Source: a virus (Duplodnaviria; Heunggongvirae; Uroviricota; Caudoviricetes). Taken from it: DNA of 39,402 nucleotides. This document shows, in pieces, positions 6,460-35,879 of this stretch. A program made the position numbers and the translations under genes. The notes below the pieces were generated by a model. That model was not told where the DNA came from, did no database searches, and saw only the letters and a list, made by a program, of their open reading frames with translations. The number at the start of each line of letters is the position of its first letter. Within the stretch, counting starts at the first letter, position 1. The DNA is taken from IMG/VR virus record IMGVR_UViG_2541047754_000004, one strand, 5' to 3'.

Positions 6460-7523
6460 GAATAAATCCTTTGCTGCGCTGAGGACGAAAGTAAATCCGC
6501 CGCGCCACGCGCTTCGCACATCATGTCCATGTACCACGCCTGGCCCCTTGTGTCACCAGTGTACATAATCCCGCGCACAATATAAACGCCATCCGTTGCG
6601 ATGCTGGCAGGCTGCGATGTGGTGCCGCTGAGCGTGATATTTCCGTCCGTGTTCTGGTCGGTGATCTGACCACCAGCCATCGCAATATCGTTGTTCGACA
6701 ACGCGGTACGATAGACGGAAGCCTGATCCAGCTGAATGAGCCCGTTAACCCGGATGTTCGGATTAATAAGCGCGCGGACGTTTACGCCGTTACCGATAGT
6801 CTGCTGCGGCATTCCAATAAGCCCGGTAGCGCTGTTGAGCACAATCGCTTCGTGAACATATTCGTTATTCGCCACCATCTGGCGCTGACCGTCCACGAAT
6901 TGCCATGTTGCGCCACATTGTCCGGCTACGTTATCCATTAGATGCCGCGTCATGCCAAAGAGTACCCGCCCCCGGGGGAATACAGTAGCAGGCATTTCAG
7001 GCGTCAGGCCTTCGGTCGCGCCTTTGGCTTCGAAGTCTTTCATCAGCGCACGGTTCACATCAGCGACCGTGTAACCGGCAGCCAGCGTCTGTGAGGTTAT
7101 ACTGGTAGCAAAAGCCAGATCAGTATCTGCTGCCTGAATCAGGACGTAGGTATCAACCGGACTGTCTTTTCCTGTGACCGAGTAGCGAATTTCACCGCTG
7201 AAAATCAGTCCGTAGTTGCGGCCATCACTCTGGCCCACGTCCGCCGCGTCAACTTCCCGCACTGTCCCGACGTCGCTTGCCGACACCTCCGGCGCGATAC
7301 CGTCGTAACCCGCAATCAGACGCACTTTCGAAAACTCCTGTCCGGTGATTCGGTTCACAGTATCTGCCGAGAGGTTATAAATTTTGATAGTCCCTACCCG
7401 GGATGCACTGCTGATGTTGAACCAGTCGATCGTAAAGGTAACTTTAAAATCACTTAGCTCAATTCCCTGACCGTTCCCGTCCACAAGCTGCAGCTCGAAA
7501 TGTCTCATCCAGTTCTGTGACAT
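6456..7523 (-). CDS. Baseplate hub protein (P2 gpD / late control D-like position)
   Basis: 355 aa; follows tape measure and two small tail genes as in P2-type tails. Confidence 0.7.
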   Translation of the reverse strand: MSQNWMRHFELQLVDGNGQGIELSDFKVTFTIDWFNISSASRVGTIKIYNLSADTVNRITGQEFSKVRLIAGYDGIAPEVSASDVGTVREVDAADVGQSDGRNYGLIFSGEIRYSVTGKDSPVDTYVLIQAADTDLAFATSITSQTLAAGYTVADVNRALMKDFEAKGATEGLTPEMPATVFPRGRVLFGMTRHLMDNVAGQCGATWQFVDGQRQMVANNEYVHEAIVLNSATGLIGMPQQTIGNGVNVRALINPNIRVNGLIQLDQASVYRTALSNNDIAMAGGQITDQNTDGNITLSGTTSQPASIATDGVYIVRGIMYTGDTRGQAWYMDMMCEARGAADLLSSSAQQRIYS

Positions 7524-7525
7524 GC

Positions 7526-7828
7526 TTACTCCGTTGATACCAGTAAATGGCTGCGACCGCCCAGGTCAGTTTTTGTGGGGTAATCCTGTGTGTTGTCATC
7601 ACAGACCACCACCAGCTTAAAACCAAGCCCCATACAGGCGTACTGCGCCAGCAGGTCGGCACCAGTGACGAGAGGAATACCGGAGATTACCGGCTCCCCT
7701 CTGTCGTTCTGCAGGTCCATAATCCAGTACAGATCGCGCCATATGATGCTAATCCGCCAGGTAACACCACCTAAGACGATGCTGAACTGCTGGTTGTCCG
7801 CTGTCAGCGGAATTTCCTGAATTGTCAT
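7526..7828 (-). CDS. Tail protein (gpX-like position)
   Basis: 100 aa ORF tightly packed in tail operon. Confidence 0.55.
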   Translation of the reverse strand: MTIQEIPLTADNQQFSIVLGGVTWRISIIWRDLYWIMDLQNDRGEPVISGIPLVTGADLLAQYACMGLGFKLVVVCDDNTQDYPTKTDLGGRSHLLVSTE

Positions 7829-8415
7829 TAGCCGCCCCCCAGTAATGACGCCACGTTACCCGTGATGCTTTTCAGCAGTGAAGTATCTGGAGGCTTTGTG
7901 GTTTTGTTGCCGCTATTCTGTACCGCCGACGTGCTGGCCCCTTCCTTCATGTTGGTTTTATCCGCGACGGTAATCTGCTGTGTCCGGGAGATAAGGACCT
8001 CCCTCAGGGTGAGGACGGCGGACAGGACGTTTTCGGTTGTCTTGTCCGTCGTCACTTCCAGCGCCCGGATCAACATGTTGCTGTACAGTCGTTTACCGGT
8101 TACCACATCGAAGGGGATACGGCTTTCCTGCAGATCCAGTAGCTCCTGATACGTCTGCTGAGGACTCAGGCCGAGCAGGCTGGTAGCCGTCAGATTACTG
8201 GCAAAATCCAGCAATGCGCCGCCACCGGCGAAACCAACCTCCATCACCACTTCTGACGGTTTTTTATAGGCATGATCAGCGACAGCGGCCCCAACCTCTA
8301 CCGGATGCTCTGTTATTTCAAGCATATCTGTATGCTTCTCTGAAATAACAACACTGGGAACAATCATTCCTATTTTTCTGCTCTGCTGATGAAAAAGTGT
8401 AGAGAGAATATCCAC
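7828..8415 (-). CDS. Tail protein (gpU-like position)
   Basis: 195 aa; start overlaps tape measure stop. Confidence 0.55.
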   Translation of the reverse strand: MDILSTLFHQQSRKIGMIVPSVVISEKHTDMLEITEHPVEVGAAVADHAYKKPSEVVMEVGFAGGGALLDFASNLTATSLLGLSPQQTYQELLDLQESRIPFDVVTGKRLYSNMLIRALEVTTDKTTENVLSAVLTLREVLISRTQQITVADKTNMKEGASTSAVQNSGNKTTKPPDTSLLKSITGNVASLLGGG

Positions 8416-10403
8416 TAACCCACCCTCACCTGATTACTTCGCATGACCTGAGCATTTGCAGACTGTTGCCGACGTGCAACCTCATTACCGACAGCGTGCG
8501 GATCTCCGCCACCGTAAATGTGGTAGGTATTTTGCTGGTTAACCTCTGTCACTTTGCCACTAATTCCCGCCACGGCAGCCTTATTAATCAGCTCTCGAGA
8601 ATAGATATTTCTTCCATTCTCATGCTGGATAATGCTGCTCATCAATGCTGACATGGTTTGCGGATCGCTCATATTCAGGGCAGCCCGGGGATCCACTCCC
8701 AGTCGTTGCGATACAGCCCTGATATACGCAGTTGTGTTGTTATTATCAGACGCAGGTGCCCAGGTAGAGATAATTTTCTCCACACTGTTTATTCCCCGTC
8801 CGGCGTACAGCATTAACTGACGAGCAAGAGCCCGTAATCCATCAAAGGCAGTTTCAAATCTGGCAAATCGCCCGCCCGGGCGTTCAAGAGAAGCCCCTGC
8901 CTGACCAGCAAAATTAAGGTTTCCCGGATTGTTATTCCGTTCTCCTCGTTTCGTAGCCTGTGCATGTTGTTCCGGCTCATCATCACCAAACCAGCCGCGT
9001 ACCGTCCGGCCCACACTGCGGGGATCAAATCCCCAGTGCTCTTTAATCCAGTCGGCAGTACTGTTAGCGCTGTCTGTAACCATCGGCATCGCTGACGGAT
9101 TTTCGCTGCCCTGATTAAGTATCTGTTTGCCGATGCTGACGGCATCAGCCCAGCGGCCATCTTTGATAGCGTTGAGCAGGTCGGCGATCATGTTCAGCAT
9201 TTTGCTGAATTCGCCCATCTGGTCGATGAAGTTGCTGAAATCCCACTTCAGGGACCATGATTTGGGGTCAATATTGAGCAGTTTCGCCAGCGCTTTCACC
9301 AGGTCGTTAACGGTCGTTTTAAGGTCACGAACCATCTTCAGCGCGGCATCAACCTCCGGTTTCCACTTGCCCCAGTCAATCAGGCTGTCGCCGCCTTCCT
9401 TCCAGGTCTGATAGTCCTCCCACAGGAGGGCAATCCCCGCCGCCAGCGCGGTAATGAGGCCAATCGGCGACATCCAGAACGTACTGTTCAGAATGCGCAG
9501 CGCAATCGTCAGTGCGCCAAACAGCGAGATCAACTCCCGCGTTTGCTTATCCAGCGATTGCCACCAGGTGATGAGGCCTGATGTCCCCTCAATCAGTCTG
9601 AAGAACAGCCGCCCGATAATATCCCCGAGCGCCAGAATGCCTTTTATGGCTTTCGTCAGGGTCTGCTCGATACGCGGGAAGTTGTCCAGGATATGGCGGC
9701 GCAGTGTGTCCAGCGAACCCGCAAGCCCACCCGCAAGATTAGAGCCGATTTTGTCACGGGCCATGCCTGCCATCGCGCCAAACTCACGCAGGGAGGTCAT
9801 AAATTTGTTGGAGCTTCTGGCCGCCTCGTCAGCATTGAAGCCGATAGCTTTCGCCATTGCGCTGTACTGCCCGGAGAAGCCACCCACACCGCGACGCATA
9901 GCCAACAGGGTATTTTCGTCAATGCCCAGCATCTGCGCATACTGGTTAGCACGGTAATACGGCATGTCGCTGAGCTTCTGGCCTACCCCTGTAAAAATAG
10001 CGGCCATGTCACGCATGTTACCGCTGGCATCCCGTGTCTGTACCCCCAGACGATTCAGAAATCCCTCCGCCCCGGGATTGTTACGAATAAACCGGGAGAG
10101 GCTTTCCAGAGAAGATCGCGCAGCGTCCACGCTGCCGCCAACCTGCGAAACCGCATAGCCAATAGACTGAATTCCCTGGACTGTCGCGCCGGTGCGCTGT
10201 GACGCCCAGTAAAGATTATCCAGGCCGGAGGCGATCTTAGCCGTGAAGGCCACCACGGACAGCGCAGCTCCTTCAACAGCCAGCCCCATTTTGATGACAT
10301 TTGCAGTTGTACCGGCGAGGACAGAACCGAACTTTTTCGCTCCTGCATCATCCACACTGAAGCCAAGCGAGACGAGGAAATCTTTAATAGTTTCAGCGTT
10401 CAT
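8415..10403 (-). CDS. Tail tape measure protein
   Basis: About 662 aa; alpha-helical, hydrophobic central segments; directly downstream of frameshifted chaperone; start taken at MNAETIK (GGAGAGAGG upstream), ORF track allows 10424. Confidence 0.85.
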   Translation of the reverse strand: MNAETIKDFLVSLGFSVDDAGAKKFGSVLAGTTANVIKMGLAVEGAALSVVAFTAKIASGLDNLYWASQRTGATVQGIQSIGYAVSQVGGSVDAARSSLESLSRFIRNNPGAEGFLNRLGVQTRDASGNMRDMAAIFTGVGQKLSDMPYYRANQYAQMLGIDENTLLAMRRGVGGFSGQYSAMAKAIGFNADEAARSSNKFMTSLREFGAMAGMARDKIGSNLAGGLAGSLDTLRRHILDNFPRIEQTLTKAIKGILALGDIIGRLFFRLIEGTSGLITWWQSLDKQTRELISLFGALTIALRILNSTFWMSPIGLITALAAGIALLWEDYQTWKEGGDSLIDWGKWKPEVDAALKMVRDLKTTVNDLVKALAKLLNIDPKSWSLKWDFSNFIDQMGEFSKMLNMIADLLNAIKDGRWADAVSIGKQILNQGSENPSAMPMVTDSANSTADWIKEHWGFDPRSVGRTVRGWFGDDEPEQHAQATKRGERNNNPGNLNFAGQAGASLERPGGRFARFETAFDGLRALARQLMLYAGRGINSVEKIISTWAPASDNNNTTAYIRAVSQRLGVDPRAALNMSDPQTMSALMSSIIQHENGRNIYSRELINKAAVAGISGKVTEVNQQNTYHIYGGGDPHAVGNEVARRQQSANAQVMRSNQVRVG

Positions 10404-29218: not shown

Positions 29219-30520
29219 ATGCCAGACGTTCACGCACAACTTTCTCCATCATCAGCGCATCGATGGATGCGCTGCCCAGGAAGTCTGGCGCTGGAGGCCA
29301 CACAACCGGATAAAGAAACAACTTTTGCAATCGAGGGCACTGCAGCGCACGCGCTTGCTGAAAAAGTTCTACGAAACAGGCAAAGCCACCCGGAACACTA
29401 CGCCGGATGCAATGTTTCTATGTTTCTCGGCTCATACCCCCTTCGCGAAAATCCTGATGATAAATCGGGCCCACAGGTGGATGATGAAATGGTCGAAGCC
29501 GTCGGCCGGTATGTTGATACGGTCTGGACTCTTGCAAAGAATAATGAACTATTGGTTGAACAACGTGTTGATTTCTCACATATAACGGGTGTGGAAGAAT
29601 CTTTCGGAACTGCCGACGGCATAATCATCGCTGGTAACGAATTACAAATCCACGACCTGAAATATGGCAAAGGCGTCCGCATTGATGCAGAACAAAATGA
29701 GCAACTACAACTGTATGCTCTGGGTGCGCTTGAACAATTCAGCATGCTGTATGACTTTGAAACTGTAAGATTATTTATTCACCAACCAAGGCTCAACCAC
29801 GTTTCAGAATGGTCGTTAACCGTACAGGAACTTCAGTCTTTCGGTGAACGGGCGCTGGAGGCCGCAACCAGTGCGATCCTTGTTCTCAATATTGCTGAAT
29901 GCGAAGGCATTGAGACACTACCGCTGGAAAACTTCATACCTGGAGAAAAACAGTGCCGCTTCTGTAAAGCAAAAGCTATTTGCACTGCCCAGAAAATGCA
30001 GCATTTACAAACAGCGGCCAGCGATTTTGAAGATCTGACAAAGCCTGTCAGCGAAATAATCACCAATGCCAGCGCACGTGTACCTCTGTTAACCATTGAG
30101 CAGCTTGCAGAGATCTATAGCCAGGCCGACTTTATTGAATCCTGGCTAAAGGCAGTACGGGACCGGGTTCACAATGAACTCAATGCCGGACATCCGGTAC
30201 CGGGGTTTAAACTGGTAACAGGAAAACAAGGTAACCGGGCCTGGAGTGACGAAGAGGCAGCTCGCGCACTTCTGAAGGACCAGTTCAGGTACAAAACTGA
30301 AGAAGTATTCGACTTTAAACTTATTAGTCCCACAAAAGCCGAAAAACTTATCAAAAAGGCCAGTCCGCGCCGTTGGTCAAAAGTCGAGGCACTGATAACA
30401 CGAGCTGATGGTAAACCAACCGTCGTTCCCGAGTCAGACCCACGCCCCGCACTCAATATCAACCCTGTAAATGATTTCGACGACGTATCCGACGATACGC
30501 TAACCGCAGACCTCATCTGA
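29219..30520 (+). CDS. Cas4-like PD-(D/E)XK nuclease (DUF2800-type)
   Basis: 433 aa; N-terminal [22 protein letters not shown] nuclease core, C-terminal [10 protein letters not shown] cysteine cluster. Confidence 0.8.
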
Positions 30521-30535
30521 TTTAAGGAAATACCC

Positions 30536-31084
30536 ATGAAACTGAAGCTGAACAATGTTCGTCTGGCCTTCCCGTCTCTGTTTGAAGCTAAAACAGTAAA
30601 CGGCGAAGGCGATCCACGTTTCTCCGCAGTATTTTTAATGTCACCCAAACACCCACAACTGGAAGAAATCCGTAAAGCTATGAAGCAGGTAGCGAAGGAA
30701 AAATGGGGGGAGAAGTGGGAGTCCATTTATAACCAGCTGGAGAAAAAACTCAATCTGTGCCTGCATGATGGTGATGAAAAAGCAGAGTATGAAGGCTTCC
30801 CCGGCAATTTCTTCCTGAATGCTGCTAACAAAGCGCGCCCAGCTGTTCTTGATCGCGATCGTTCGCCACTTATTCAGGCTGATGGACGTCCCTATGCAGG
30901 GTGCTATGTAAACGCCGTTATCGATATCTGGGCACAGGACAATAATTTCGGTAAACGCATTAATGCCTCACTCGGCGGAGTCCAGTTCCTGCGAGACGGC
31001 GATGCATTCGCTGGCGGCGGAGTGGCAAGCGCTGACGATTTCGACGATATCAGCGAAGGCGCAGACGCCGATACGCTCATTTGA
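30536..31084 (+). CDS. DUF2815-type protein (putative ssDNA-binding) of the PolA module
   Basis: 182 aa; acidic C-terminal tail DDFDDISEGADADTLI; conserved position after DUF2800. Confidence 0.72.
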   Translation: MKLKLNNVRLAFPSLFEAKTVNGEGDPRFSAVFLMSPKHPQLEEIRKAMKQVAKEKWGEKWESIYNQLEKKLNLCLHDGDEKAEYEGFPGNFFLNAANKARPAVLDRDRSPLIQADGRPYAGCYVNAVIDIWAQDNNFGKRINASLGGVQFLRDGDAFAGGGVASADDFDDISEGADADTLI

Positions 31085-31099
31085 GTAACAATGCAGCCC

Positions 31100-31600
31100 T
31101 CATTGAATTGGGGGCTGTTTAGATTCCTGTTCCTCTTTCAATGAACGAACTTTGCTATCATATATCCTGAGTGCATATTCGTTAATTTGCCTAGTTAAAT
31201 CGGAATCTAGCTTATAATATTTTTCAGCCCACTCAATTAAATTCTTCCTCATTATTATCTTCGGTTCAATTTTATTAATTCTATTTAAATGCATATCACG
31301 ACCGCGTTCAAAATTAAGATATGCTTGTTCACTAACGCCCTGTCCATCGATTGTGTAGGTAGTACCACTTGCACGGAAAGAGAGATGAGTCTTTTTACCA
31401 GCATATCTTTCATTATGTATAGCTTTATCGGTATTCACTATTCGAAGCCATGTCCAAAACTCATCATTAAGAATGTATTTATCAATTATTTTTAATATTA
31501 AAAAATCTCTACCTATTAGTAATAGAGGCATCAAAAAATAAACCCCAAGAAAACTCAACGCCGCTGTAATAATAGTTGAAAAAGATATTGATAACTCCAT
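31100..31600 (-). CDS. Membrane-anchored hypothetical protein (cargo gene)
   Basis: About 166 aa from ATG at 31600 (GGAG upstream); one N-terminal TM helix; AT-rich; opposite strand to flanking replication genes. Confidence 0.6.
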
Positions 31601-31621
31601 TTTACTCTCCAAAGGTTAGAC

Positions 31622-33685
31622 ATGAACAATATACTATGGGGCGACCTGGAAACCTATTGCGAAATCCCGATTACGAACGGCACCCATGCGTATGCCGAAG
31701 GCGTTGAAGTGATGCTTTTCGCATGGGCTATCAACGACGGGCCAGTAAACGTGTGGGATATCACTGCCGGAGGTGGTATTCCACACGGCTTATACGAAGC
31801 AATCGCAGACCCTGAAACCCTGCTTTATTTCCATAACTCTCACTTCGACCGCACCGTTCTGCGTTATGCAATGCCGCGACTGGCACCGCCAGTCGAACGT
31901 TGGCGCGACACGATGGTGCAGGCGCTGGCGCACGGTCTCCCGGGGGCTCTGGGGGAACTCTGCGAAGTACTAGGCGTCCCGCAAGACAAAGCGAAGGACA
32001 AAGAAGGTAAAGCGCTGATCCAGCTGTTCTGTAAGCCACGCCCGAAAAACAGCAAACTGCGTCGGGCCACCAGTAAAACCCACCCGGAAGAATGGCGGCG
32101 CTTTGTTGCTTACGCCGGACTGGATATCGAGGCAATGCGCGAAGTCTATAAACGTCTGCCGAAGTGGAATTATCAGGGGACAGAACTGGCGCTCTGGCAT
32201 CGTGATCAGCAGATCAATGACCGGGGCGTCTGCATGGACATGCAACTCGCACGCGCTGCGATCGAAGCGGTAGACCAAGAACAAAAGCGCCTGGCAAAGC
32301 GTACACAGGAAATGACTGATGGCGAAGTGCAGGCAGCCACACAACGAGACGCGTTGATTAAGCACATTGTTGAATCCTACGGTGTGGAGCTACCAGACAT
32401 GCAACGCAGTACTCTGGAACGTCGTATTGCCGACCCCGATTTACCATCTGCCGTGAAAGAACTGCTGGCTATCCGCCTGCAAGCCAGTACTACCAGCACC
32501 AGTAAATACAAGGCACTGATGAAAGGCGTAAGCCACGACGGGCGCTTACGCGGTACGCTACAGTTCTGCGGGGCGTCACGTACCGGTCGTTGGGCCGGAC
32601 GGCTATTCCAGCCCCAGAACCTTCCCCGCCCTTCACTAAAACAGGAACAAATAGACGAAGGCATCGAAGCACTGAAAGCCGGATGTGCAGACCTGCTGTT
32701 TGACAATATCATGGAACTAACCAGTTCAGCGTTACGTGGCTGCATTATCGCGCCAACAGGCAAAAAACTGGTGGTAAGTGACTTGTCAAACATTGAAGGC
32801 CGTATGCTGGCATGGCTGGCGGGAGAGGAATGGAAACTGAATGCATTCAGAGAGTACGACGCCGGAACGGGTCCGGACTTATATAAACTGGCGTATGCAA
32901 AAGCTTTCGATATTGCACCAGATGATGTTGATAAACACATGCGTCAGATCGGTAAAGTCATGGAACTCGGTCTGGGTTATGGAGGTGGTGTAGCGGCTTT
33001 CATCACTTTTGCTCTGGTTTACGGTCTCGATCTCGACGAGCTGGCGAACGCCGCACTGCCAAACATTCCCCGCGATGTTATCCGCGAGGCGAAAAGCTGG
33101 TACGACGAATCGGTTAAACGCAAGTCAACCTACGGGCTTTCTGAACGGGTATTTATCGCCTGCGACTCACTTAAACGTCTCTGGCGCAGGGCGCACCCGG
33201 CGACCTGCGATTTCTGGTACGAACTGGAGCGCACCGTCCGCACAGCAATCGCCACACCGCAAAAAACATTGTATTGCGGCTATCTTAAAATCCGACGTGA
33301 TGGCGCGTGGCTGCGCATACAGCTACCATCCGGACGCGCTGTATGCTACCCGTCTCCGGTTATCGAAAAAGGGAATATCACCTACATGGGTGTTAACTCT
33401 TATTCGCGTAAATGGCAACGACTCAAAACCTACGGCGGAAAGCTGGTGGAGAACGTCACCCAGGCAGCCGCCCGCGACGTTCTGGCCGGAAACATGCCGC
33501 TTATCGAAGATGCCGGTTACAGTATTGTGTTGACGGTACACGACGAGGTGATCACCGAAGCACCTGACACAGAAGATTTCAACGATAAAGCGCTTTCCGC
33601 GCTTCTCTCCACTAACCCCGAATGGGCACCCGATATTCCGCTGAATGCTGGCGGCTTTGAGGCGTACCACTACCGTAAGGAGTAA
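31622..33685 (+). CDS. Family-A DNA polymerase with 3'-5' exonuclease domain
   Basis: 687 aa; exo motif WGDLETY, motif [17 protein letters not shown], motif C TVHDEV. Confidence 0.9.
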
Positions 33686-33692
33686 TACAAAG

Positions 33693-34721
33693 TCACTTAA
33701 AATCCCTAGATAACATCTGCGAAGCAGCTGATGCTGTATAAACTCCAGTATGTTTTATTTCTGCAGCTATTTTGTAGCCATCCTCCTTAAACTGCGTAAG
33801 CATTGAGCTTAAGGAACCAAGTTTTTTAGTATTCAACACCATTCTAACGACAGTTCCTTCATGATAATGACCTAACTCTATATGCTTCTTTCCGTGTTCA
33901 TCTAGATATATTGCATGGTCACCGCTACAAATAAGAAAACTACCGCCAAGTTTACATATACGGCTGATCATATAAAGGCCAAATCCCGAATTATGCCAAG
34001 GATTTCTTGTATTGATTCTCGCCCCCTTAAAATTTTTACTAGAAATAGATGGCATTAACGCTAACTGAATGGCTTCAGAATCATTATCAGCTTCTATATA
34101 AGGGTTCTTCGATAGAGATTTTTTCATTCCTATACCATTATCAGAAATTGTTATTTCAACACGGTCATAAGAAGGCCAATACTGTGCACAATATTCAATC
34201 ACCTTTGAATCACTATGTTCCACAACATTACGCATAATTTCCCTAATAGAAAATGTCAAAGCATCAATGAGGTCGCCTTCTTCTTGGCGAGCAAGAATCT
34301 TTGCTAATTTACCAGATCGTTCCTCAACTATCTCTTGCACCTCAGTATATTTATCGTTAGCTTCATCTATAACTGTTTGAACACGAAGAATTGTAAATGG
34401 AACAAAATTATTATTTCCATCTGTACATCCCGGTTCACGGCCATGCTTTAACCCGAAGGCTCGAAAGAATGCCATATTTGCGGCATAATCCTTATTCTCA
34501 TGCCCGCTACAAAAAAGTTTAAAACCATCAATGTTCTTTTTCTGTTTTCGATGGAAGTCTCGAATATGCTTAGCAACATAAACCATTGTAAATGGTTCAA
34601 TCCTTCCCATATGCGAAAAATCGATTGTTATTTGCTGTTGACCTGAATGTTTTTCAATTTCATTGCAAAAATTAAATATCTTTTCAGGATTACATGAAGA
34701 GGGAAATAAGATTCGTGACAT
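33693..34721 (-). CDS. GHKL (histidine-kinase-like) ATPase domain protein with unknown N-terminal domain (cargo gene)
   Basis: 342 aa; ATG at 34721 with AAGGA upstream; motifs RNVVEHS, ITISDNGIGM, NSGFGLYMISR; AT-rich; opposite strand. Confidence 0.7.
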   Translation of the reverse strand: MSRILFPSSCNPEKIFNFCNEIEKHSGQQQITIDFSHMGRIEPFTMVYVAKHIRDFHRKQKKNIDGFKLFCSGHENKDYAANMAFFRAFGLKHGREPGCTDGNNNFVPFTILRVQTVIDEANDKYTEVQEIVEERSGKLAKILARQEEGDLIDALTFSIREIMRNVVEHSDSKVIEYCAQYWPSYDRVEITISDNGIGMKKSLSKNPYIEADNDSEAIQLALMPSISSKNFKGARINTRNPWHNSGFGLYMISRICKLGGSFLICSGDHAIYLDEHGKKHIELGHYHEGTVVRMVLNTKKLGSLSSMLTQFKEDGYKIAAEIKHTGVYTASAASQMLSRDFK

Positions 34722-35081: not shown

Positions 35082-35879
35082 TTAATCCGTATTTTTAACA
35101 CGTGTTTCGAAACACTCTTTTAATTTAGCTATTTCCTTTTTAGAGGACATGACTGTGAATTTCATCCCTTTTAAATCATTAACAAATTCAAATTTTGCGC
35201 TATTGGACTCACAATCACCAACAACAAAACCACTACCAAATGAATTGAGCAACACTTTAGTATTACTACCATCTACCATATAATATTCGTTATTTTTAAA
35301 TGCAGTAACCTTCCCGAAGGTATAGCTCAATATCAATAATGTCATCACCCCTAAAGGAAAAGCTGATTTTAGGATTTTTAAATCGATATAATAAAATACG
35401 TCTTTATACTCTGCAAGCCTCCCAAATTTTCTAATGCTATCCATATGATGTTCGTGTCTCTTACTATGGATTGACGCGGACACCGCATTGTGGTAATTCA
35501 ACAAAAGCAGAGCAAATAATAAAATATCTCCAACACTCATCACAGAGGTTTCGGAGAAATAACCAAAAGGCCAATGGAATCCTATTATGTAAAAATTAGG
35601 TATTAGCATAACCACTATAAATATAATAAATGGAACATAATATTTCCCTTTCAAATCAAACATCAATGTCGCGTATAAGGCACCGAGAAATAAAAAACTA
35701 AAAAACAAAAGCCATACAGCCGAATACAATAGCGTATTTAAATCTATTTTAATAAAAAGGGCTGGATAGCCATAATACGATGCAACACCTTTCTGAAAAG
35801 AATATGCCATCGCATAAGCTAACGCTGAAAAAACAGTTAATAAAGAAACTTGTTTTGTAAGTATTTTTGCCAGGGGCAT
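35082..35879 (-). CDS. Polytopic membrane protein with soluble C-terminal domain (cargo gene)
   Basis: 265 aa; ATG at 35879 with GGAGG upstream; several hydrophobic helices in first about 150 aa; AT-rich; opposite strand. Confidence 0.65.
   Translation of the reverse strand: MPLAKILTKQVSLLTVFSALAYAMAYSFQKGVASYYGYPALFIKIDLNTLLYSAVWLLFFSFLFLGALYATLMFDLKGKYYVPFIIFIVVMLIPNFYIIGFHWPFGYFSETSVMSVGDILLFALLLLNYHNAVSASIHSKRHEHHMDSIRKFGRLAEYKDVFYYIDLKILKSAFPLGVMTLLILSYTFGKVTAFKNNEYYMVDGSNTKVLLNSFGSGFVVGDCESNSAKFEFVNDLKGMKFTVMSSKKEIAKLKECFETRVKNTD

Follow-up and report, generated by a model that had tools for sequence, protein, structure and literature searches.

The window analysed in this study is a 39,402-bp stretch of DNA from a virus of the Caudoviricetes (IMG/VR record IMGVR_UViG_2541047754_000004). 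At bp 31100-31600 its minus strand carries an ORF of 166 aa, read from an ATG, whose product is predicted to consist of a transmembrane (TM) helix and a helical domain with a small three-stranded sheet (based on the ORF list, homologues, dN/dS and an AlphaFold model). This gene, which we refer to as the cargo gene, is flanked by two plus-strand genes: on the left the gene for an Enc34-type ssDNA-binding protein (SSB, DUF2815) at 30536-31084 (Pfam PF10991, E 2e-44), and on the right the gene for a family A DNA polymerase (polA) at 31622-33685 (Pfam PF00476, E 5e-14, and RefSeq annotation of homologues). A four-way DNA alignment showed that the exchangeable cassette is the whole intergenic block between DUF2815 and polA, 31085-31621 (537 bp).

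The ORF list also offers a TTG at 31612 as an alternative start, which would give a protein of 170 aa (31100-31612). All homologues begin at MEL(S/T)IS..., after the ATG at 31600, and a Shine-Dalgarno sequence, GGAGAG (31605-31610, read from the minus-strand letters), lies 4-6 nt 5' of this ATG; the 166-aa reading is therefore the right one, and not that of 170 aa. The G + C content of the cargo gene (0.33; GC3 0.26) is lower than that of the SSB gene (0.50) and of polA (0.54), with a GC3 of 0.49-0.56 in the flanks. Only 21 bp separate the ATG of the cargo gene (31600) from that of polA (31622). An antisense, AT-rich ORF of about 166 aa, starting some 20 bp from the polymerase start, had been noted in a preliminary description of this DNA, and both points were confirmed.

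The same module contains two more AT-rich antisense genes. One of them (33693-34721, minus strand) lies directly after polA and encodes a product of 342 aa with a GHKL/HATPase_c match (Pfam, E 1e-7), a match to phrog_3364 (E 2.5e-33) and a weak partial match to DrmA. The matching slot of IMG/VR locus L018 contains a 91%-identical copy; at this position E. coli A16 has genes for an ANR regulator, DUF7446, VRR-NUC and a Dcm methyltransferase instead. The other gene (35082-35879, minus strand, 265 aa, G + C content approximately 0.33) is located between the VRR-NUC and SNF2 helicase genes. Its product has no family match in Pfam, PADLOC or PHROGs, and a 22%-identical relative is present in the matching slot of locus L016. 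Both genes vary independently of the gene at 31100-31600, which agrees with the earlier proposal that the latter is an independently acquired cargo, the third in this module.

Transcription of the locus

Divergent and overlapping promoters had been proposed for the cargo gene and polA, and this was not borne out. A promoter scan revealed no sigma-70-like site around 31600 on either strand; inside the ORF it gave two minus-strand matches, in counts no higher than in shuffled sequence. Since the two ribosome-binding sites fill the 21-bp spacer, a promoter of the cargo gene could only be situated within the coding part of polA. Neither this part nor the plus strand upstream of polA contained a consensus promoter. 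The polA gene is on the same strand as the DUF2800 and DUF2815 genes, with short gaps in between, and transcription of polA by read-through from this upstream operon seems at least as likely as transcription from a promoter of its own. Read-through of polA would silence the antisense cargo gene in lytic growth.

The convergent junction with DUF2815 contains a 10-bp GC-rich hairpin (31093-31118) that overlaps the stop codon of the cargo gene (31100-31102). Folded as RNA, it has an energy of -18.2 kcal/mol (z -3.6) on the plus strand and of -12.0 kcal/mol (z -2.1) on the minus strand. The plus-strand form resembles a terminator whose U tract is weak; the hairpin is kept in A16, where the U tract is better. 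A strict terminator scan did not call this hairpin, which may function as a partial bidirectional terminator. An Rfam scan of the whole window gave no match.

The cargo gene and its family

A word-indexed search of 5.8 billion proteins recovered 11 clusters of homologues with 37-99% identity, originating from E. coli, Citrobacter, Salmonella, Klebsiella aerogenes and Serratia. Using a profile built from these 11 close clusters, a HMMER scan of 1.84 billion cluster representatives (at 50% clustering) detected 86 proteins at E<=1e-3, 47 of which were found at E<=1e-10. Nearly all of them are 150-180 aa long and align end to end, with an identity that goes down to approximately 25%.

Synonymous and nonsynonymous divergence was determined with the Nei-Gojobori method. 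Between the window and A16, dN/dS was 0.22, and dS was 0.33 in the cargo gene versus 0.08 in the flanks. Between the window and IMG/VR locus L014, dN/dS was 0.17; here dS was alike in the cargo gene and the flanks, and dN was 0.17 versus approximately 0.04 in the flanks. These ratios show that the cargo gene is under purifying selection, and it evolves several-fold faster than the replication genes. The difference in dS in the comparison with A16 means that the A16 and window alleles differ in history from their flanks, and this indicates an exchange of alleles.

The absence of a database family and of a promoter-scan match around the start would also be expected of a chance ORF in an AT-rich spacer, or of a decaying remnant that is not a functional gene. 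However, full-length homologues down to approximately 25% identity are present across many genera, dN/dS is 0.17-0.22, a Shine-Dalgarno sequence is present, and an alignment of 12 sequences only was enough for a structure model with a pLDDT of 90.5. A chance ORF or remnant is thereby ruled out by the conservation, and the sequence at 31100-31600 is a genuine coding gene. Conservation as a coding sequence in close relatives was one of the points on which the preliminary description had staked its reading, and it was found.

The cargo protein had no match in Pfam, NCBIfam or PHROGs (38,880 phage protein families), exclusion families included, and no family in PADLOC-DB v2.0.0 (library of 2023) matched it at E<=0.01. 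A search of PDB sequences with the 52-sequence profile of the family gave a best E of 0.28, which is meaningless, and structure comparison against the PDB and BFVD yielded nothing beyond generic helical bundles, among either solved or predicted viral structures. Deva (brcWGS21) was tried as a homologue and rejected: the family HMM scored <=0 bits on the six-frame translation of this cassette (sequence taken from a machine-read PDF). The literature search found no paper that mentions WP_042969540, the RefSeq entry of the A16 homologue, or phage vB_EcoM-689R2, and papers on DUF2815 and prophages contained nothing on the SSB-PolA junction. Judged by these comparisons, the cargo gene founds a previously undescribed family.

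The DUF2815-polA junction is a cargo slot

In a megablast of bp 30400-32400 against 5426 complete E. coli genomes, 159 genomes had the junction, in each case on the chromosome. Only one of these, that of A16, matched the middle of the query as well; the family is rare in E. coli (1/5426 genomes). A comparison of this junction across relatives had been suggested beforehand; it revealed a slot in which 158 of the 159 related E. coli prophages have unrelated cargo in place of the block 31085-31621. Nor is the cargo gene present in the deposited phages vB_EcoM-689R2, -611R5 and -606R2, all three of which are relatives, and a search of 50,697 deposited phage genomes revealed no member of the family.

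For a census of the slot, 36 full junctions were sampled at even intervals from the megablast ranking. The most common occupant was an antisense gene of 209 aa (15/36), followed by the combinations of Nmad5 with an antisense 229-aa gene (7/36) and of Nmad5 with an antisense 89-aa gene (7/36), and by an antisense 199-aa gene (4/36). A BRO-N gene, an AntA/AntB gene and the cargo gene of the window were each present at a single junction (1/36). The slot thus contains at least 7 types of cargo, at least 6 of which are unrelated to the window gene. The other antisense occupants are mostly small membrane proteins. Slot cargos of 209, 199, 229, 89 and 208 aa were considered as remote relatives of the cargo protein and rejected by BLASTP, the family HMM and hhalign. 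Nmad5 excepted, the alternative cargos gave no match in Pfam or PADLOC.

The four-way DNA alignment showed that homology stops in the last codons of DUF2815 and resumes at the ATG of polA. The codons at the breakpoints vary among the cargo variants, with DUF2815 ending in ...ADADTLI or ...ADAEALI and polA starting with MNN or MSN. These differences mark recombination breakpoints just inside the flanking genes (30536-31084 and 31622-31630). No flanking repeats or signatures of a site-specific cassette were found around the window gene, which would agree with homologous recombination in the conserved flanking genes as the means of exchange.

Several of the other occupants have features of their own. 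The commonest in E. coli are the 209-aa and 199-aa proteins (L003, 1738-2367, and L004, 1712-2311), and a 208-aa protein of Serratia (L010, 7342-7968) has the same architecture: a TM helix at the N-terminus, followed by a charged central part and, at the C-terminus, by two TM helices that end near an F/I-P motif. The similarity between any two of the three is not significant and they have no family match; they may form a second uncharacterised family. The Serratia loci L010-L013 carry a tandem antisense pair (7342-8492), consisting of a member of the cargo family and the 208-aa three-TM protein, and thus the slot can accumulate cargo. On the sense strand the slot is often occupied by Nmad5 (nucleotide-modification-associated domain 5, Pfam E 4e-55; L002, 1737-2378; L005, 1722-2374), in some cases with a frameshift, and a small antisense gene accompanies it every time.

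Homologues of the cargo gene were placed in phage-borne loci (IMG/VR loci L014-L018, Logan contig L009 and Serratia loci L010-L013), and in all of them the gene is antisense between the SSB and PolA genes. The homologues of L014-L018, L009 and L010 are 34-72% identical to that of the window. PolA and SSB are 88-94% identical in L014-L018, and 61-77% in L009 and L010. In L015, L016 and L018, a cargo protein with only 34-38% identity is found in a backbone with 88-94% protein identity. Such hyper-divergent alleles in one slot of a conserved backbone are a pattern known from genes engaged in conflict.

The family outside phages

Hosts of the family span the Gamma- and Betaproteobacteria. Members were found on 15 plasmids, mainly Klebsiella IncF plasmids (L030, L031 and others), near IS elements, a type I R subunit, RelE and CcdAB. 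On the chromosome of Stutzerimonas kunmingensis (L033) the gene (7983-8474) is one in an array of small ORFs on the same strand, between which lie attC-like repeats of 79-85 nt (GCCTAAC...GTTAGGC), and these repeats identify the family member there as an integron cassette. This was the case in L033 alone, and the window gene is without flanking repeats. A member in Vibrio splendidus (L036) adjoins F-type tra genes, at the edge of an ICE or a plasmid, and the member on a Logan contig (L026) lies between IS fragments.

Other members have defence genes as neighbours. In an AT-rich island (L034) the gene is located directly upstream of Gabija GajA/GajB (E 1e-167 and 2e-169) and a C5 methyltransferase gene. 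The remaining contexts include DUF3800, HEPN_AbiU2, an Old nuclease (E 2e-209) and a methyltransferase (L024); an integrase island with PDC-S06 (E 6e-226), AbiTii and a type I RM system (L020); a Vibrio locus with a resolvase, HigBA and an MmeI-type RM enzyme (L019); a methyltransferase and SLFN_AlbA_2 (L028); and a PLD (DrmC-like) neighbour (L035). Gabija, Old, AbiU2, PDC-S06, RM or SLFN genes occur within 8 kb in approximately 6-7 of the 13 or so non-phage contexts, by raw count. Four contexts (L026, L030, L032 and L036) contain mobile-element genes only and no defence genes.

The family gene is lower in G + C content than its surroundings at 19 of 21 loci. It has no conserved partner gene, and the neighbours in the islands are unrelated from one context to another. 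The family is a stand-alone mobile gene found among prophages, plasmids, integron cassettes and defence islands. The defence-gene neighbourhood is suggestive of an anti-phage role, by guilt by association.

Some of these contexts contain further features. The family member of L035 (Marinicellulosiphila) is bracketed by direct repeats of 113 nt (82% identical; 7847-7959 and 8740-8852), which could represent a cassette boundary or a duplicated regulatory region. Directly upstream of two distant family members, in L020 (7390-7902, 170 aa) and in L028 (331-852, 173 aa), are genes whose products both contain an R-x4-H motif (RNNLFH and RNKFSH), reminiscent of HEPN domains. The two products have no significant similarity to each other or to Pfam and PADLOC models.

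Features of the cargo protein

The only strongly hydrophobic segment is N-terminal, with a Kyte-Doolittle maximum (19-residue window) of 2.23 at residues 11-29, and the TM helix comprises approximately residues 6-30. An AlphaFold2 model, made from a 12-sequence alignment (mean pLDDT 90.5, pTM 0.73), contains helices at residues 7-43, 46-66, 91-128 and 135-161 and three short strands within residues 71-89. The single N-terminal TM helix of the preliminary description was found both as the hydrophobicity peak and as the first helix of the model. Its soluble domain rich in Tyr, Lys and Glu held in part: residues 46-166 are charged (E, K and I 9.1% each, R 8.3%), and Tyr is only somewhat raised, at 5.8%, which is not striking.

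The 52-sequence alignment of the family contains only four invariant or nearly invariant positions. Inside the TM helix these are Y21, conserved at 90% or more, and the invariant P25; at the end of the helix they are R31, also invariant, and D32, again at 90% or more. Mean column entropy was 1.8-1.9 bits for residues 1-45 versus 2.7-2.9 bits for the remainder, so the TM and juxtamembrane region is better conserved than the soluble part. In all 52 members the number of K + R is higher after the TM helix than before it (on average 2.6 in the 15 residues past the helix versus 0.02 in the N-terminal tail of approximately 5 residues). By the positive-inside rule, the predicted topology is N-out/C-in with a cytoplasmic soluble domain, and the protein is predicted to be located in the inner membrane.

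Possible function

The preliminary description put forward no function for the ORF. Our preferred reading, held tentatively, is that the cargo gene is a moron in an SSB-polA recombination hotspot of a temperate enterobacterial myovirus and encodes a mobile inner-membrane protein, most likely an anti-phage protein of the Abi type. The anti-phage activity, the mechanism and the topology are what we infer from the sequences. The cargo protein would act at the inner membrane and make the lysogen resistant to other phages. The conserved TM helix (Y21, P25, R31-D32) would be the effector or assembly module, and the fast-evolving cytoplasmic helical domain would determine specificity by sensing a phage component; activation would perturb the membrane and so abort infection. 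The combination of a conserved TM helix, a variable cytoplasmic domain, single-gene mobility and defence neighbours fits such an inner-membrane sensor-effector. Points that speak against this reading are the lack of any match to a known defence, phage or protein family and of an informative fold match, the contexts with mobile-element genes only, the negative promoter scan, and the rarity of the family in E. coli together with its absence from the deposited phage genomes. Approximately one third of the phage-resistance integron cassettes in one study have TM helices (bioRxiv 10.1101/2024.07.02.601719), and both integron cassettes and prophage hotspots have been described as sources of defence genes, which in many cases encode TM helices (bioRxiv 10.1101/2024.07.02.601719; PMC9122126).

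Among the possible mechanisms we rank membrane perturbation of the Abi type first and a block of injection (SieA, Sie2009 or SNIPE-location type) second; a single TM helix is a minimal effector, and the two are inseparable by sequence. Superinfection exclusion of the SieA, Sie2009 or HK97 gp15 type, in which the cell is not killed, would account for a small, single, prophage-borne gene with a predicted inner-membrane anchor and for divergent alleles at one locus, as described for SieA (PMC10883804). Membrane defence at the stage of injection also has precedents in SNIPE (PMC13190303) and Deva (bioRxiv 10.1101/2024.07.02.601719). However, the spread of the family over plasmids, integrons and islands of Gamma- and Betaproteobacteria is wider than one would expect if the protein were adapted to the ejection machinery of one phage group, most of the protein has a predicted cytoplasmic location, and the protein has no PHROG match and is not homologous to Deva, so that we regard exclusion as unlikely. 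The most probable of the alternatives, a real possibility although we do not favour it, is an accessory membrane protein that is mobile and serves envelope physiology, stress tolerance or maintenance of the element, rather than defence, in hotspots that tolerate insertions. This would agree with the contexts that contain generic mobile-element genes only, with the lack of a recognisable catalytic or defence domain, and with the other slot occupants, which are likewise uncharacterised small membrane proteins. It is at odds with the repeated adjacency to Gabija, Old, AbiU2, PDC-S06 and RM genes and with the extreme divergence of alleles in near-identical backbones, which suggests an arms race.

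The position between the SSB and DNA polymerase genes, together with the predicted N-terminal TM helix and cytoplasmic helical domain, could also be that of a membrane anchor or organiser of phage DNA replication, similar to phi29 p16.7. The gene is antisense to the module and foreign in composition, however; of 159 E. coli relatives with these same replication genes, 158 lack it, and the family occurs in plasmids, integron cassettes and islands without these replication genes. This distribution effectively excludes such a role, which we consider very improbable. A holin or other lysis protein was rejected, the gene being flanked by the SSB and DNA polymerase genes and not located in a lysis cassette beside an endolysin gene.

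The anti-phage reading can be extended to a new minimal, single-gene anti-phage system, in which a self-assembling TM effector (Y21, P25, R31-D32) would be combined with a hypervariable cytoplasmic four-helix domain that makes direct contact with phage proteins and recognises them. The SSB-PolA slot and the two antisense slots downstream of polA would then be an unrecognised defence hotspot, placed in antisense within the replication operon of a prophage, and its genes would be silenced automatically by lytic transcription when the prophage itself is induced. This extended version is speculative and we think it unlikely.

If a role in defence is true, the family would be a very small (166 aa) single-gene defence family without a known domain, and SSB-PolA would be a new cargo hotspot in a widespread group of enterobacterial prophages (159/5426 complete E. 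coli genomes). The commonest occupants of the slot, uncharacterised small membrane proteins, could then be mined for more systems, and the antisense placement in an early replication operon would suggest a simple way to shut off cargo at induction. If not, the gene would be an ordinary moron.

Comparison with known systems

The phi29 protein p16.7 is a membrane-anchored replication organiser with an N-terminal TM helix and a cytoplasmic domain. The cargo protein shares the N-terminal TM helix, the helical domain, predicted as cytoplasmic, and a gene position near replication genes, whereas the cargo gene is dispensable, variable, antisense and found elsewhere without phage replication genes. 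Lactococcal proteins of the Sie2009 type are prophage-encoded, approximately 160-170 aa long, have an N-terminal membrane anchor and block DNA injection; they are encoded in the integrase-repressor region. The size, the N-terminal anchor and the occurrence as a single accessory gene of a prophage are shared. The host phylum and the locus (SSB-PolA for the cargo gene) differ, homology is not detectable, and the bulk of the two proteins is probably at opposite sides of the membrane, that of the cargo protein being predicted as cytoplasmic.

SieA of P22 is a small inner-membrane protein, as the cargo protein is predicted to be, and is likewise encoded by a single prophage gene with very divergent types at one locus (PMC10883804). 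Unlike SieA, to which no homology was detected (PHROG, Pfam), the cargo gene occupies a slot in the replication module and its family is also present outside phages. The BRiCs, which include Deva (brcWGS21), are small stand-alone TM genes without known domains on mobile cassettes (bioRxiv 10.1101/2024.07.02.601719), as the cargo gene can be, but the cargo family is not homologous to Deva, the only BRiC compared by sequence. The defence hotspots of P2 and P4 prophages have in common with the present slot the conserved flanks, the alternative foreign cargos and the exchange without site-specific repeats (PMC9122126). They belong to another phage family, whereas the SSB-PolA slot lies inside an early replication operon with its cargo in antisense, and the SSB-PolA occupants seen match no known defence system. 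A moron in a prophage hotspot, encoding a possible membrane defence or exclusion protein, is thus of a known kind; the family and the SSB-PolA slot are new.
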